38,061 nt of DNA. Source: Candidatus Nanohaloarchaea archaeon (GTDB taxonomy: Archaea > Nanohalarchaeota > Nanosalinia > Nanosalinales > Nanosalinaceae). Of this stretch, positions 30,001 through 36,000 are shown one piece after another (position 1 is the stretch's first letter; each line of letters opens with the position of its first letter). The stretch covers positions 1 to 38,061 of the forward strand of contig JAWOFP010000056.1 in NCBI GenBank assembly GCA_046497485.1, read 5' to 3'. A program made the position numbers.

Positions 30001-33000
30001 TATACTCTCTTACAATCCATCTAGTAATTAAATTAACTATAGAATCTACTTCCTTATCTGTTAGAGGCCTTCCAGCAGGTATTCTATGTGCTCTAGAAAG
30101 TTCTTTTCTATATGAGCAACGGCATGCATGCATCGCCTTATAAACCGGGTTTCCTGCGTTAGGAGTCTGAACACCGTCATTTTTAGGCTGCTTACGGAGC
30201 TTTTGCTCTACTATATCTCTTACCTGCTCCTTAATTCCCGGAACTCCTAGCTCCTTGATTAGAGCGATATCTCTATCCTCTAACCTAGGCATATCTTCTC
30301 CTCTTCCAGGAAGTTCCAAACGGCGCATATCTAGGTTTAGTCCTCTGAATGTTAAAACAGTATTTAAAAATCAATCCGACTTCTCTAGATATGCCATACA
30401 AGATAGGCCTCGTAGGAAAGCCAAGCGTTGGAAAGTCTACGTTTTTCAACGCAGCGACGATGAACACAGTGAATGAAGCAAACTATCCTTTCACAACAAT
30501 CGAACCTTCAGTGGGAGAGGCCTATGTAAGAGTCCAAGACGCGGCCCCAGACTTTGGAGAAGAGCCGGATCCACGGGTCGGATACTACCACCACGGCACA
30601 AGGTACGTGCCTGTGAAGCTAGTCGATGTCGCAGGACTAGTACCGGGAGCACATGAGGGTAAAGGCCTCGGAAACCAGTTTTTAACAGACTTGAATGAAG
30701 CTGATGTACTTATACATGTGGTCGATTTCTCCGGCGAGACCGATATAGAGGGCGAACCGACTTCAGGCCACGACCCAAGAGAAGACATAGATTTTCTGGA
30801 AAACGAACTAGACCAATGGTACCTAGATATCCTCAAGAAAGGAATTGAACGCTACGATGGAAAACAGAGACAACAAGATGTCAAGCTTGAGGAAGAACTA
30901 GCCGAACAAATGTCAGCTTTCAAGGTAAACAAGAACCAGATCAAACAACTAATACTGAGACAAGATCTAGAGCTAGATCCAGATACCTGGGATGATAAAG
31001 ACAAGCTAGGCCTGGCAAGAGCAGTAAGAAAAGATACTAAACCGATCGTTATCGCAGCCAACAAGATGGACCTAGAAAAGTCACAGGAGAATTTTAAGGA
31101 AATCAAAAACGATGAAGAATACGAACACCTTGAATTTGTCCCTTGCAGCGCTCACGCAGAAAAGGCCTTGAAAAACGCGGATGAAAAAGAACTGATCGAG
31201 TACTGGCCTGGAAATGATTATTTTGAGATTTTACAGGAAGATGAAATGAATGACCAGCAGAAAAAGGCCTTGGAAGATGTCAGAGATTTCATAAATGAAT
31301 TCGGAAGCACAGGAGTGCAAGAAGTCATGGAGAAGGCCTTATTCGATGTATTAGAAGTTATAGCAGTCTTCCCTGGAGGAGCAGATGGATTAGGTGACAA
31401 GCATGGAAATATTTTGCCTGATTGTTTCCTGATTCCAGGAGGATCAACGGCAGAAGACTTCGCATATGAGATCCACTCAGATATAGGAGACGGATTTATT
31501 CATGCGATTGACTGCCGAGATAACCGCCAAATCGGCGGAGACCACGAATTAGAGCATAGAGATGTTATCGAAATTATTACCTCAAATTAAAGTCTCAATT
31601 GATTTAGCTGAAAAATCCTGAAATCCAGGTTCTAAACCTTGCCATCATACTAGTACTTTGAGACTCTTCAATTTGGACAGTTGAATTATCTGAGTTAACA
31701 ACTTCTTCATCTACTATAACTTCATAACTTACATCATACTCTCCGTCCTCAAACTCATCCAAGGCCTCAAACTCTACAGGAGTAATAACCTGGGTCACAA
31801 ACTCTTGATCGCTTGGAGAACTCAATCTGAAAACTGCGTTAATTTCATCTCCGTCCTGAGTTATACTCTGTTCCAGCAAACCATACCCACCAGTATTAGC
31901 GCAGTAAAGGCCTTCAACCGATACTTCAGAACCATTTACAGAGATATTCGCATCAGCCTCACCAATACCTACACCATTACAGCCATCAGACTCCGACTGA
32001 ACAAAAACAGTAGAACTGGAAAAACCCATTGAAAGGCCTAAAAGCATAGTAACTCCAATCGCAAGGCCTAGATATTTCTTCATAATTATTTATTATCAAT
32101 CTGATGGTTTATATTTAACTATTATCCTCTATTTTGGAACTGATTAATTCCATAATAATTACTCAAAAATAGAAGAAAAAGGTTAGACCGTTAGGCCTAA
32201 CATTTGCTCCATCCACATGAAGGGCATTTTTTGCAGCCTTCTTGTAGTTCGAGCATTCCTCCGCAGTCTGGGCATTCTGGATTGTCGCCTCCGCTGATTA
32301 TGGATGCGACATCACCTGTGCTGTCTGCGAATTCTTCTGTCTCGGTTTTGGCTTGGACTTGTCCTTGGTCGAACTCGTCAACTTTTTGCTGGCTTCCTGA
32401 TTCCATTCCGAGGTGTCGCTTCATTGCTTCTGCGACTGCGTCAGGAACTGAGTGGATCTGTTTTCCGCCGTCCCATGAGATCTGAGGGCTTCGGATGTCA
32501 TCTAACTGGTTGATGACGTCTTCTCCTGATGCACCTGATCTTAGGGCGAGTGAGATCGTTCTTCCTAGGCCTTCTGTGAAAGACTGTGTGTAGCCTCCTG
32601 CTTTCCCGATTTGTGCGAATACTTCGAAAGGTCCGTCCTCGTCATCATTGATGGTGACGAAGAGGTCTCCATAGGCTGTCTCGATTTCCTGTGTTGTGCC
32701 TTGGATTACTTTAGGCCTTTCTCTTGCGCCTTCTTTGCTCATGGAGGTTGAAGCTGCCTGTTCTTCTGTATCTGCTTCTATTCCTTCCTGAGTTACTTCT
32801 TGGGAAAGATCTTCTGACTCGGTTTCTGCTTCTACTCCTGAGGCATTTGATCCTTCTTCCTGTAGCTGTAGGCCTGTCTGGCTTACTACTTCCTCGAATT
32901 CGTTGGATTGGACTAATTCTTCTGCACCTCCGAACTCTTCAACTATTTCGGAGAGCATATCGACCTTGTCCATGTCTGTCAACGTGTTTTCTTTGTTGGT

Positions 33001-36000
33001 CTGCATGACCTGTGTGTCACGTGTTCCGTCACGGTAGACCGTCATACCTTTGATTCCTTTGTCGTAAGCTCTCATGTAGGCCTCTCTTACGTCTTCCTTA
33101 GTTGCTGAGTTAGGGAAGTTGCATGTCTTTGAGATGCCTGAATGGTTGTAGTACTGGAAAGCCGCCTGGATATCGACGTGCTCCTCAGCGCTTACCTGAT
33201 TAGCTGTGGCGAAGATTTCCTTTACATGAGGCGGTAGAATTTCGTCAGGGATTGATTTGACTCCGTCCCATTCGTTGTTCTCCATCTTCTCCTGTGCAGC
33301 AGCTTTGACTTCTTCTACATCTACATCGTTAGCTTCTAATGCTTTGATGAAGTAGTCGTCGAACTCGACAAGCATGTCTTCTCCCTGAATGTCTTTTGCA
33401 ACATTCTTGAAGTATGCCAGGCTGAAGATTGGCTCGCATCCTCCGGAGGTGTTTCCGATCATACTTGTTGTTCCGGTCGGTGCGATTGTCACAGTATTGT
33501 GGTTTCTCAACTTGAGACCGTCTTCGAAATCTTGTGGGTCTAGGCCTCCTGTGTACTGTTCGAACCATTCTGGGTACTCTGTTGGGTTTGCCCATTTTGA
33601 GTCATCCCATTCACTGAATGCTCCTCTTTCTTCTGCTAGAGAGTGTGATGCTTCGATTGAGTATCTTGTGATCTGTCTCTGGATTTCTTTTGCGGCTGCA
33701 ATCGATTCATCGCTTCCGTAACGAATTCCAAGCTGCATCATCATCTGTGCGTATCCCATTAATCCGAGTCCGACTTTTCTCATCGAACTGACTTTGTCTT
33801 CGATCTTTTCGAGTGGGAAATCGCTCATTGTTACAACGTTGTCGAGGAATCTAAGCCCTGTCTTTGCGACATATTCAAATTCTTCCATATCAACTGCTTC
33901 AGGGACGTAGTCCTGCATTGCTCTTTCAAGGCCGTCCTGAGTATCTAAATCATAGGCTGAGCCTTTCTTCTCCTTCCATTCATCGAAAGTTAAAGCGGTT
34001 CCGTCGCCTTGATCATCGACAAGCAATGATAGATTGATGTGTCCTAGATTACAGGCCTCATAGTTTTCAAGAGGCTGTTCACCACAAGGGTTTGTGGCCT
34101 CTACTTTGTGTTCCGGATGTTTTTCGACGTCAAATGAGTGCATGTCATTGGTTTCATCGTACATGTATAGGCCTGGTTCTCCGTTTCTCCATGCGCCGTC
34201 GATAAGTGTTTCCCAGATGAATCGTGCTGGAAGCGTCATTTCTTCTCCTGGCTCTAGATCTATATCGTATTCCTTGACTTCTTCTCCAAATGTTGGTGCG
34301 AAGTCTCTCCAGAAGTTGTCGTTTCTTCCTGAATCAGATCCTGCGGCTTCAGGATACCAGTCTTCGTCCCTGTTGTAGAACTCTGCTGTTTTCTCGTTTA
34401 CAATATGAGGTTCGTCGGTTCTCGGGTTGATTAGTGTGTATTCTTCATCGTTTTTGACTGCTTCCATGAAGTCTTCTGTGAGTCCGACTGAGATGTTGAA
34501 GTTGGATAGGTTTCCTTCCTTTCTCTTTGAGGTTACGAAACGCAGTACGTCAGGGTGGTCGACTCGCATGATCCCCATCTGTGCTCCACGTCTTTTCCCT
34601 CCTTGCTTGATTGTTCCACACATGGTGTCGAATACTTGCTGGAATGTCATAGGTCCGGAAGCGATTCCTCCTGTGGACTTGACTTGATCTCCTTTAGGCC
34701 TCAGTAAATGGAAAGGGTATCCCATTCCTCCTCCGCTCTGGAAGATCTTTGCAGCGTCGTGAACAGTATTGAAAATTGAATCCATGTCGTCCTTAGGATG
34801 CGCTACGAAACATGCGGAAAGCTGCTGTAGTTCTGCTCCAGCGTTCATCAGTGTTGGACTGTTAGGCATGAAGGCCTGGTGTGTCATCAGGTCGAAGAAT
34901 TCTTTCCAGGATTCCTCGTAGTCTGTGTGTTCAAATTCTTTGTCTGGCTGTGCAACGTTTTTTGCTACGCGTTCAAACATTTCTTCTGGAGTTTCAGTTA
35001 CGTCACCGTTCTCGTCTTTGAGAAGGTATCGGGCCGGCAGAATGCGTTCGTACGCATTCTCTGTCAGCCTTTCTTCAACTGTATCTCCTGTTACTCTTTT
35101 TACAGGTAGTTTAAAGTCTGTCTTCGATTCTAATTTATTCGGCATTGTGTCACCTTAATATAGGATTGAGTTATTCTTTTAGCGACTCTACTTCCTTCTG
35201 GAACGATTCCAGGTCTTCAAATGAGTCATAGACTGATGCAAATCTGATATAGGCCACTTCGTTTCTCTTTTTGAGTTCTTCCTTGATTATTTGGCCTATT
35301 TCTTTGGAGGGTACTTTTTTCCTGTTTTTAACCTCCGATTTCACTTTTTCAATAATCTCGTCTATCTGGTCTTCTTCTACAGATGTATTTTTGACCGCCT
35401 TTTCGAGGCCTGCTCTTATTTTATCTTCACTGAACTGTTCGATTTCCCCATCGCTTTTCTCGACTTTCAGATTCAGTGATTCGACTTCCTCGTAAGTTGT
35501 AAATCTTTCCTCACATTCCTTGCATTCTCTTCGTCTTCTGACACGGTGTTCGCTTTCACGAGTGTCCACTACTTTCGTGTCTCCTTCTTCACAGTAGATG
35601 CATTTCACTATAGTTACCTCTAACCGATTTAATTGATGTACTACATATAGGTAGAATTCTCTACCCTCCCCACTACATATCGTAGTTCCTTACCTAGATG
35701 TTGTGGGTTACTCCTTTTATACTCTTTCATGTTCAGGCCTAACGAATATTCATCAGAAGGTAGCGAAAGCTGTAACAGATTATAACCTTTAGGTTAGACT
35801 AAATTAACATGGCACATCACTACGCTGGTGGGACCCCCGAAGAACATGAACTAAACAAACAGGAAAGAATGAATTACGTTGTAGAAACTATAGGAGATGA
35901 AGAATCTGGCGAAATAAACTTTGAAGGCGTTAGAGAAGCACTAACACAAGATATTCGTCAAGATACCATAGCAAGAATTGAAGGAATGGAACTAGCTAAA

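Follow-up and report, generated by a model that had tools for sequence, protein, structure and literature searches.

The window, a stretch of 38,061 nucleotides (positions 1 to 38,061 of contig JAWOFP010000056.1 of a nanohaloarchaeal genome, GCA_046497485.1), carries on its minus strand the gene for the repressor NrdR and, starting 25 bp downstream, nrdJ for a class II ribonucleotide reductase. The features are listed in the order of transcription.

35722..35728, minus strand: purine-rich element that we take, from general knowledge of archaeal promoters, to be BRE-like (from sequence; GnAGAG conserved in the family)
35714..35721, minus strand: TATA box TATAAAAG, 36 nt before the box pair
35691..35706, minus strand: third NrdR box, between TATA and the predicted start (12.0-12.2 bits, rank 11-13)
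35670..35685, minus strand: NrdR box, upstream member of the pair, predicted +6 to +21, six critical bases
35654..35669, minus strand: linker of 16 bp, family-conserved (G-run ... TTCT)
35638..35653, minus strand: NrdR box, downstream member of the pair, predicted +38 to +53, six critical bases
35616..35620, minus strand: Shine-Dalgarno-like GAGGT before nrdR (from sequence; conserved in the family alignment)
35171..35608, minus strand: nrdR, Zn-ribbon and ATP-cone repressor, 145 aa (PF22811, PF03477, TIGR00244)
32197..35145, minus strand: nrdJ, class II (adenosylcobalamin) ribonucleotide reductase, 982 aa (TIGR02504)
32182..32201, minus strand: terminator-like hairpin with a T run, at the nrdJ end

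Profile searches place both genes above their family cut-offs (TIGR00244, 152 bits against 124.65; TIGR02504, 714 bits against 399.95), in agreement with the initial annotation, which had nrdR heading an operon with class II nrdJ and present in 62 of 70 genomes of the phylum, a count that we obtained as well. In a control genome, that of Haloferax volcanii, TIGR00244 gave no match. The NrdR product consists of an N-terminal Zn ribbon with two CxxC motifs and an ATP-cone (PF22811, PF03477), the only ATP-cone found in this genome; NrdJ has a C-terminal TSCPD domain and lacks an ATP-cone. The window protein keeps D15-T-R17 and RRRR, whose roles in DNA contact are described in the passages of PMC9110341 on that subject. 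In an alignment to E. coli NrdR (9FVR), with S. coelicolor numbering converted by eye, the nucleotide-site residues V48, K50, E56, K62, F124 and Y128 are all kept, and the R51 position is Ser, as in E. coli (reference contact residues from those passages and PMC12176259). A PduO adenosyltransferase is encoded in this genome and in 57 of the 70 phylum genomes; a FecCD/BtuC-type permease was looked for and not found. Since three terminator-like sites were found where 4.4 were expected, only the position of the hairpin at 32182..32201 is suggestive.

The previously described 16-bp palindromes 32 bp apart before nrdR are indeed present, separated by a 16-bp linker (required range, 15-17 bp), and each of the three window boxes, including the one overlooked before, has all six critical bases (C4, A6, A8, T9, T11 and G13). 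In all 43 family promoters a TATA-like motif begins 33-38 nt upstream of box 1, the start sites being predicted. The third box lies 21 bp from the next and was seen in this genome only; its gap of 5 bp is, by bacterial data, too tight for one tetramer.

NrdR boxes in the genome and in the phylum

The genome was scanned with a matrix from ten bacterial sites, controlled by 30 column-permuted versions, and with an archaeal matrix that was also permuted. The nrdRJ pair (35638/35670) is the top-scoring pair under both matrices, and C51:3918, before a second reductase operon, is the top single site and has all six critical bases. Only with the archaeal matrix did the real sites exceed every permutation (pair, 26.8 versus 22.4; single, 23.5 versus 21.2); with the bacterial matrix the real pair reached 23.3 bits versus up to 24.6 from permuted matrices. 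Because the window pair does not beat every permuted bacterial matrix, the comparative counts rather than the single-genome scan carry the case. The sites had been presented as the only pair and the top two hits of the genome: pair and C51:3918 do rank first in their categories, but C32:4073 (coding, 17.4) ties with 35670 under the archaeal matrix, and under the bacterial matrix 35670 ranks only 12th. Other high-scoring single sites inspected as further regulon members lie in coding regions, except C59:10038, which was rejected as it lacks C4.

With the bacterial matrix and a cut-off of 10 bits, 55 of 58 nanohaloarchaeal nrdR genes have a box ahead of them (chance would give 1.7), and pairs spaced by 31-34 bp occur at 41 of these 58 loci (0.13 expected). 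Among 28 held-out loci, 27 have at least one box and 22 a pair. nrdJ adjoins nrdR in 55 of 58 loci; for the first 30, box (at least 10 bits) and adjacent nrdJ are each found at 28, not at all 30 as stated earlier. The related genomes in these counts are non-independent samples. Linkers measure 15-17 bp in 29 of the 41 pairs and 18 bp in 12. In an E. coli reporter 18-bp linkers gave no repression, although two bacterial NrdRs out of four showed good in vitro binding to them (PMC12051234); the 12 pairs are a point against the operator model. A thin bacterial spacing control gave pairs at 5 of 80 broad nrdR loci (30, 31, 32, 32 and 42 bp), and three Chloroflexota loci have pairs at 31-32 bp.

Boxes follow the reductases rather than nrdR. 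In genomes G007 and G008 nrdR has been relocated beside arginine-pathway genes and has no box pair there, and pairs with 32-bp spacing precede class Ic nrdAB in both and nrdD in G007. Pairs are likewise found before class Ic nrdAB of G039 (33 bp) and the NrdR-NrdD fusion of G001 (31 bp), so that boxes precede four kinds of reductase in the phylum (class II, Id, Ic and III). As a negative control, pduO promoters are boxed in 0 of 30 cases; since pduO beside nrdA is unboxed and a core gene, this adjacency looks incidental. Weak ATP-cone matches in seven genomes came with no reductase ORF in the stretches inspected.

The coding DNA of this genome contains many single sites of 12-17 bits, as would suit palindromes that arose by chance or serve an unrelated archaeal regulator. 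Against such an origin, which we regard as improbable in the extreme, the NrdR consensus is matched at all six critical bases, four reductase kinds are boxed, and in Halobacteria boxes track nrdR. Among 20 nrdB loci without intact nrdR only two have a box, both with an apparent nrdR remnant. The comparative evidence thus strongly supports a predicted NrdR regulon over nrdRJ.

The nrdBA operon on contig C51

The small subunit encoded on contig C51 matches PDB entries 6SF4 (E-value 1.9e-129), 5OLK (3.2e-129), 8DQ3 (1.6e-114) and 6CWO (9.5e-93), the first non-Id entry following at 2.7e-23; apart from 8DQ3, which had been left out, this reproduces the values given before. The motifs E..K..W, E..H...Y and T..EE..H are present here and in 49 of 49 tree sequences, providing Glu as first ligand, a second-sphere Tyr, Lys at +4, Trp at +7 and the Thr partner of Tyr. 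NrdI (PF07972) was not found in the genome, which is 97% complete, and NrdA lacks an ATP-cone. With all class Id sequence signatures present, assignment to class Id is supported, and by analogy the cofactor would be a Mn2(IV/III) centre that superoxide forms and that has no tyrosyl radical.

The signatures agree with the placement of the small subunit among bacterial class Id enzymes in the initial annotation; its nearest relatives outside the phylum, however, are haloarchaeal and haloviral (73-86%), not bacterial. Likewise, the restriction of close copies to six other genomes is valid inside the phylum, where seven nrdB copies occur in six other genomes of four genera, but some 50 nrdB loci of Halobacteria are 73-82% identical. 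The part of PMC3019208 dealing with this enzyme clade of halophilic archaea and viruses described its bacterial origin and plasmid and virus carriage in 2010.

Neighbours of nrdBA differ in each genome, and identity ranks invert between nrdA and the other genes: for G025, of the same genus, HisRS, NrdJ and NrdA are 84, 91 and 86% identical, for G056 76, 81 and 94%, and for G044 neighbours reach 51-68% and NrdA 97%. An AU test rejects a clade of this genome with G025 (p 0.034). Six of the seven copies have the box, and the only unboxed one sits on a virus-like contig and hence is probably not a chromosomal loss. These data support the earlier proposal that nrdBA moved between genera together with its upstream box. 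nrdB and nrdA rank second and third of 574 ORFs in GC3, which is consistent with a recent donor like the G044 lineage and is no proof of a halobacterial one; neither of two trees resolved the direction of transfer between Halobacteria and Nanohaloarchaeota. One viral nrdB copy nests in the nanohaloarchaeal clade. A virus as carrier of the box was considered and rejected, as five viral nrdB loci examined have no pair.

Two complete boxes were not found at the nrdBA promoter, which has one perfect box (C51:3918) and a half-site at +32 that lacks T11 and G13 and scores below zero. For the class Id operon, control by tandem boxes is therefore only likely. The half-site, 31-33 bp past the box, merges with the TATA element roughly 30 nt upstream of the start codon. 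Every chromosomal copy has a degenerate second site, G13 missing in 7 of 7, and bacterial NrdR requires two boxes (PMC13584703, in the passage on this point, and PMC12051234); in E. coli, that passage reports, G13 loss in one box abolished binding. NrdR might accordingly govern nrdRJ alone, the perfect nrdBA box being a non-repressing relic carried in with the cassette. We consider this unlikely, since a relic is expected to decay, whereas the upstream box is near-perfect (17-19 bits) in 7 of 7 chromosomal copies despite diverged flanks, even in G025, which is only 76% identical in DNA, and C4, A6 and T9 of the half-site recur at +31 to +33 in all seven. Given a single perfect box with a half-site and the two-box requirement in bacteria, we rate predicted NrdR control of nrdBA as likely only.

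Predicted control of the two promoters

In bacteria, where the action of this dATP-sensing repressor is well studied, rising dATP yields a dATP/ATP-loaded tetramer that occupies a pair of boxes spaced by three helical turns and bends the DNA, and NrdR with ATP alone releases it (PMC9110341, passages on mechanism). With predicted boxes before both reductase operons of this nanohaloarchaeon, NrdR is very probably the dNTP-sensing off-switch for ribonucleotide reduction, with dATP-dependent tetramer binding carried over from the bacterial work. At nrdRJ, where NrdR control is predicted with high confidence, the pair at about +6 to +53 of a start predicted near 35691 would mediate autoregulation. 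As it lies behind an intact BRE-TATA, TBP and TFB can probably bind while RNA polymerase loading or escape is blocked, a choice of step that we moderately favour. At nrdBA the half-site merges with TATA, so NrdR probably competes with TBP/TFB, and more weakly; the nrdB transcript is predicted to be leaderless. The operon would be a horizontally moving, B12-independent back-up whose cassette comes with an operator and, wherever it arrives, falls under the control of the resident, vertically inherited NrdR. Because neither reductase has an ATP-cone, transcription is probably the sole overall dATP brake.

The nrdRJ linker, unlike bacterial ones, is conserved in sequence, which could instead point to an RNA hairpin that mainly tunes translation, in which the right half of box 1 and the G-run pair with TTCT and the left half of box 2. 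At variable positions, pairing in the inner arm reaches 0.83 when G-U is counted, versus 0.46-0.52 for other arm pairings, and a hand-anchored alignment folds at -6.6 versus -0.05 for column shuffles. RNAalifold found no structure on a MAFFT alignment, however, phylogenetically independent pairs give no covariation support, Halobacteria pairs show no such pairing, and nrdBA has the same boxes upstream of TATA, hence untranscribed. A mainly RNA-level element is thus very unlikely; as a layer added to the operator, a hairpin is possible though doubtful.

The operator reading mostly extends a known bacterial system. NrdR is said to act in "some archaea" (PMC12051234 and a passage of PMC9110341), a 2014 review states that the box is absent from archaea (PMC4009431), and the published box surveys consulted cover bacterial genomes; our literature searches found no paper reporting an archaeal box. 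As regulator, box and mobile cassette are each known, the interest is a specialist's. Defined archaeal operators would allow a bacterial-type repressor to be tested against TBP, TFB and a eukaryote-like polymerase, and the pairing of a manganese-type reductase with a B12 enzyme may reveal how a B12-salvaging symbiont buffers its dependence on the host.

Halobacterial NrdR and known systems

A tree of 131 rows, whose deep branches are unresolved, separates the NrdR clade of Halobacteria from the nanohaloarchaeal one; a derivation of the former from nanohaloarchaea is conjectural. Box pairs there are 29-30 bp apart in 23 of 28 cases and never 31-33 bp, and most of the clade lacks Arg17, which is essential in S. 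coelicolor according to the relevant passage of PMC9110341; shorter linkers (13-14 bp) and Arg17 loss would imply changed tetramer geometry and base read-out. As a negative control, halobacterial nrdJ is boxed in 0 of 10 cases. The 13-bp-linker, Arg17-less variant in culturable strains offers a direct test of the published spacing and read-out rules. Tentatively, and with slightly less than even confidence, we combine these points: NrdR may have been recruited to archaeal TATA promoters on two or more occasions, under differing rules. In Nanohaloarchaeota a core, phylum-wide regulon would capture every incoming reductase (II, Id, Ic, III), block polymerase at one promoter but TBP/TFB at a second, and accept a box whose partner is a half-site fused to TATA; the NrdR of Halobacteria, a separate one, would travel in the class I cassette, having evolved the short linker and lost Arg17. 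The class Id cassette would circulate among hosts, nanosized symbionts and viruses, freeing the symbiont from host B12.

Plasmids and minichromosomes of haloarchaea carry nrdR-nrdB-nrdA cassettes (PMC3019208, Table 3) that share the enzyme clade (about 80% identical), mobility and the link to NrdR. Their NrdR belongs to a separate clade and moves within the cassette, and nrdJ is unboxed, whereas in the present genome NrdR is a core gene next to nrdJ and the cassette brings the operator only; the section of PMC3019208 on these cassettes describes no boxes. The class Id NrdAi/NrdBi of Leeuwenhoekiella blandensis and Flavobacterium johnsoniae (6SF4, 5OLK, 6CWO; PMC6754362, PMC8463856) share the pairing of Glu with Tyr, the Lys and Trp that follow the first ligand, the Thr preceding the last ligands, the absence of NrdI and an alpha subunit without ATP-cone. 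In the present case the host is archaeal, beta also lacks an ATP-cone, and class Id is read from sequence. Closest in layout is Streptomyces coelicolor nrdRJ (PDB 7P37/7P3F; corresponding passages of PMC9110341), where nrdR likewise heads an operon with class II nrdJ, two 16-bp boxes lie about three turns apart, the contact residues are the same and the regulon includes a second, class I operon. In the nanohaloarchaeal system, by contrast, a search for Rfam families over the window and C51:1-10000 gave no riboswitch and nothing else outside tRNA, linkers measure 15-18 bp with conserved sequence across the phylum, and the promoters are archaeal (BRE-TATA), with boxes downstream of TATA at nrdRJ and TATA-fused at nrdBA.

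The nrdR-nrdJ promoter

The genome studied (G000; 968 kb, 41.5% GC, 97% complete), of which the window, C17, is one contig, encodes an NrdR whose closest named relatives are Nanohaloarchaea. The gene is followed after 25 bp by nrdJ and is preceded on the coding strand by a BRE-like element, a TATA box and three 16-bp boxes:

35721-35714, minus strand: TATA box TATAAAAG, 3' of the BRE-like element
35706-35691, minus strand: predicted NrdR box, all six critical bases
35685-35670, minus strand: predicted NrdR box, all six critical bases
35653-35638, minus strand: predicted NrdR box, all six critical bases
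35171-35608, minus strand: nrdR (TIGR00244 passed)
32197-35145, minus strand: nrdJ, class II ribonucleotide reductase (TIGR02504 passed)

All three boxes, spaced by 21 bp and then 32 bp, carry C4, A6, A8, T9, T11 and G13, the positions named in PMC13584703. Both boxes described in the initial annotation are confirmed, but the leader had been recorded incompletely, as the third full box at 35706-35691 was missed. Alignment of the window NrdR demonstrates that D15, R17, the RRRR motif and the nucleotide-site residues are all retained. The protein carries the sole ATP-cone found in G000, so that neither reductase has a dATP brake of its own. The linker at 35654-35669 is conserved in the family leaders as a G-run and a TTCT motif and could lengthen a leader hairpin, for which independent pairs in these leaders give no covariation support. 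Divergent from nrdR, across a common 200-bp intergenic region, lies a 138-aa ORF (35809-36225, plus strand) with no match in Pfam or NCBIfam.

Across the phylum set nrdR is present in 62 of 70 genomes, the same count as obtained before, and in 28 of 28 of high quality. We scored 58 promoters with a bacterial matrix, leaving out G000, a fusion in G001, a contig-end fragment in G020 and a short fragment in G018, the last preceded by a 19-bit box. A box scoring 10 bits or more precedes 55 of the 58 nrdR genes (1.7 expected) and a pair with both boxes of at least 7 bits is present in 41 (0.13 expected), counts that are not independent trials because the genomes are related. The pairs are spaced by 31 bp (5), 32 bp (18), 33 bp (6) or 34 bp (12). 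The 28 later-fetched loci alone yield a box in 27 and a pair in 22, and nrdJ adjoins nrdR in 55/58. A TATA-like motif starts 33-38 nt ahead of box 1 in 43 of 43 family promoters. Given the usual position of the archaeal TATA box relative to the transcription start, this distance places the pair at a predicted +6 to +53, approximately. The nrdRJ locus has every NrdR family feature that could be judged there from sequence, and its box system is very probably a real archaeal NrdR regulon. A nanohaloarchaeal-type nrdR-nrdJ locus is also found on L128, a contig filed as Colwellia polaris that is therefore probably misbinned or mislabelled.

G000 was also scanned with two matrices, built from ten bacterial sites and from 33 archaeal sites without its own genus. 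Under both, the window pair is the top pair and C51:3918 the top single site. The earlier ranking of these as the top two hits is correct in these respects but not for second place, where a coding-region site at C32:4073 ties. As permuted bacterial matrices sometimes equal the pair score as well, the single-genome scan is only suggestive. A small-ORF cluster with an integrase-like gene, recognized by eye (C59:5253-11174), is possibly an integrated element; its palindromic intergenic site at 10038 lacks C4.

Boxes at other reductases and the class Id-type operon

The boxes track the reductase genes. The nrdR of G007 and that of G008 adjoin arginine-pathway genes (carbamate kinase-like, carbamoyltransferase) and have no pair, and 32-bp pairs are located at the Chlamydia-type class Ic operons of both genomes and at nrdD of G007 (loci L004, L011, L179, L180 and L380). 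At the class Ic nrdAB of G039 (L178:3600-3800) the promoter looks like a duplicate of that of nrdRJ, with BRE-TATA, the G-rich linker and two boxes 33 bp apart, and in G001 (L369:414-2711) the NrdR Zn ribbon and ATP-cone are fused to a class III NrdD with a 31-bp pair at the 5' end. None of 30 pduO promoters has a pair, and no pduO was found in G007 or G008, both incomplete genomes. G056 encodes a second, short NrdJ-like protein (586 aa, L371:371-2131) with only weak box-like sites nearby.

The second reductase of G000 is encoded by two genes:

C51:3988-4971: nrdB
C51:4972-6696: nrdA

NrdB matches solved class Id proteins far above every other match and contains the Glu, Lys, Trp, Tyr and Thr signatures of this class (criteria in PMC8463856 and PMC6754362), in agreement with the class Id type proposed previously. 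NrdI was not found in this 97% complete genome, which encodes a superoxide dismutase. The same contig carries an RtcB-like RNA ligase gene (35866-38709) that presumably holds an intein.

A single perfect box is located 70 nt ahead of the nrdBA start codon. A half-site lies at +31 to +33 in all seven chromosomal copies (that of G000 and six others) and merges with a TATA motif located some 30 nt ahead of the start; it reaches 10-12 bits in two genomes, has a negative score in G000 and is without G13 in every copy. At nrdBA the proposed tandem boxes amount to one perfect box and a half-site. Since bacterial NrdR requires two boxes (PMC13584703, PMC12051234), NrdR control of nrdBA is likely but not secure, and the operon is a probable second regulon member.

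Class I beta genes above the Pfam cut-off occur in 10/70 genomes, seven of the G000 type and three of class Ic. The neighbours of nrdBA differ in each genome, its identity ranks are inverted relative to HisRS and NrdJ, and in trees the G000 copy groups with other genera and not with same-genus G025 (AU p 0.034), which upholds the suggested transfer between genera and marks the operon as mobile by sequence comparison. By GC3, nrdB and nrdA rank 2nd and 3rd of 574, and G000 and G056 share 96% identity across 28 nt of the box region. The sole unboxed copy of nrdB in a nanohaloarchaeal assembly (L173, G055:C1) has thyX, thymidylate kinase, a split nrdA and an nrdJ fragment around it, on a contig that matches G000 almost nowhere and is read as viral. 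On viral contig L181 an nrdBA without box is nested among the nanohaloarchaeal copies (86-89% identity); this virus is a possible vector.

Beyond the phylum, the nearest relatives come from Halobacteria (73-82%), on haloarchaeal plasmids (about 80%) and on viral contigs (77-86%), with Salinibacter-like bacteria behind (67-69%). Halophile-archaeal and viral copies form a single clade (99/97), sister to the Salinibacter-like bacteria. The placement of the small subunit with bacterial class Id enzymes is therefore right as to class but not as to closest relatives. PMC3019208 already describes the same group as plasmid-borne nrdR-nrdB-nrdA cassettes that were acquired from halophilic bacteria, and counts L. 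blandensis as one of its neighbours. The novelty of the operon is smaller than originally claimed.

A halobacterial NrdR variant

The short-spaced, Arg17-less halobacterial NrdR is the least expected outcome. Among 201 sampled Halobacteria 30 carry nrdR, which is immediately upstream of nrdB in 28 of 52 halobacterial nrdB loci and whose product forms a clade separate from nanohaloarchaeal NrdR. A pair is present in 23 of 28 full-length nrdR loci (0.10 expected), spaced by 29 bp (17) or 30 bp (6) and never by 31-33 bp, and only 3 of the 28 proteins retain Arg17, the others having mostly Gly or Glu (loci L137, L138, L141-L166; L049-L102). After removal of near-identical promoters (n = 29) the spacing is 29 bp in 13, 30 bp in 7 and 27 bp in 1, with 8 weak. 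Halorutilus, on a basal branch, has 32-bp spacing and Arg17. The short spacing reflects a single evolutionary transition, not several.

In PMC12051234, a 13-bp linker gives no repression in E. coli, and its binding falls short of that of the optimal linker by a factor of about 3 to 100 that varies with the NrdR; such a linker is at the edge of tolerance but not excluded. Thermotoga provides a known case of a 14-bp linker (PMC13584703). At halobacterial nrdJ no pair was detected in five loci from four nrdR-bearing genomes or in five from genomes without nrdR, two start codons being uncertain. On L096 and L101 (about 2726-2960), what seems to be the truncated start of nrdR comes after a 29-bp pair and ahead of nrdB; here nrdR may be decaying while the operator stays.

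Comparison with known regulons

Full-text searches, with most subscription papers outside their scope, returned no paper showing an archaeal NrdR box or regulon. Archaeal entries may be present in the NrdBi tree of PMC6754362 and among the boxes listed for PMC9110341. The G000 regulon is predicted to work like that of Streptomyces, with its nrdRJ and nrdAB operons.
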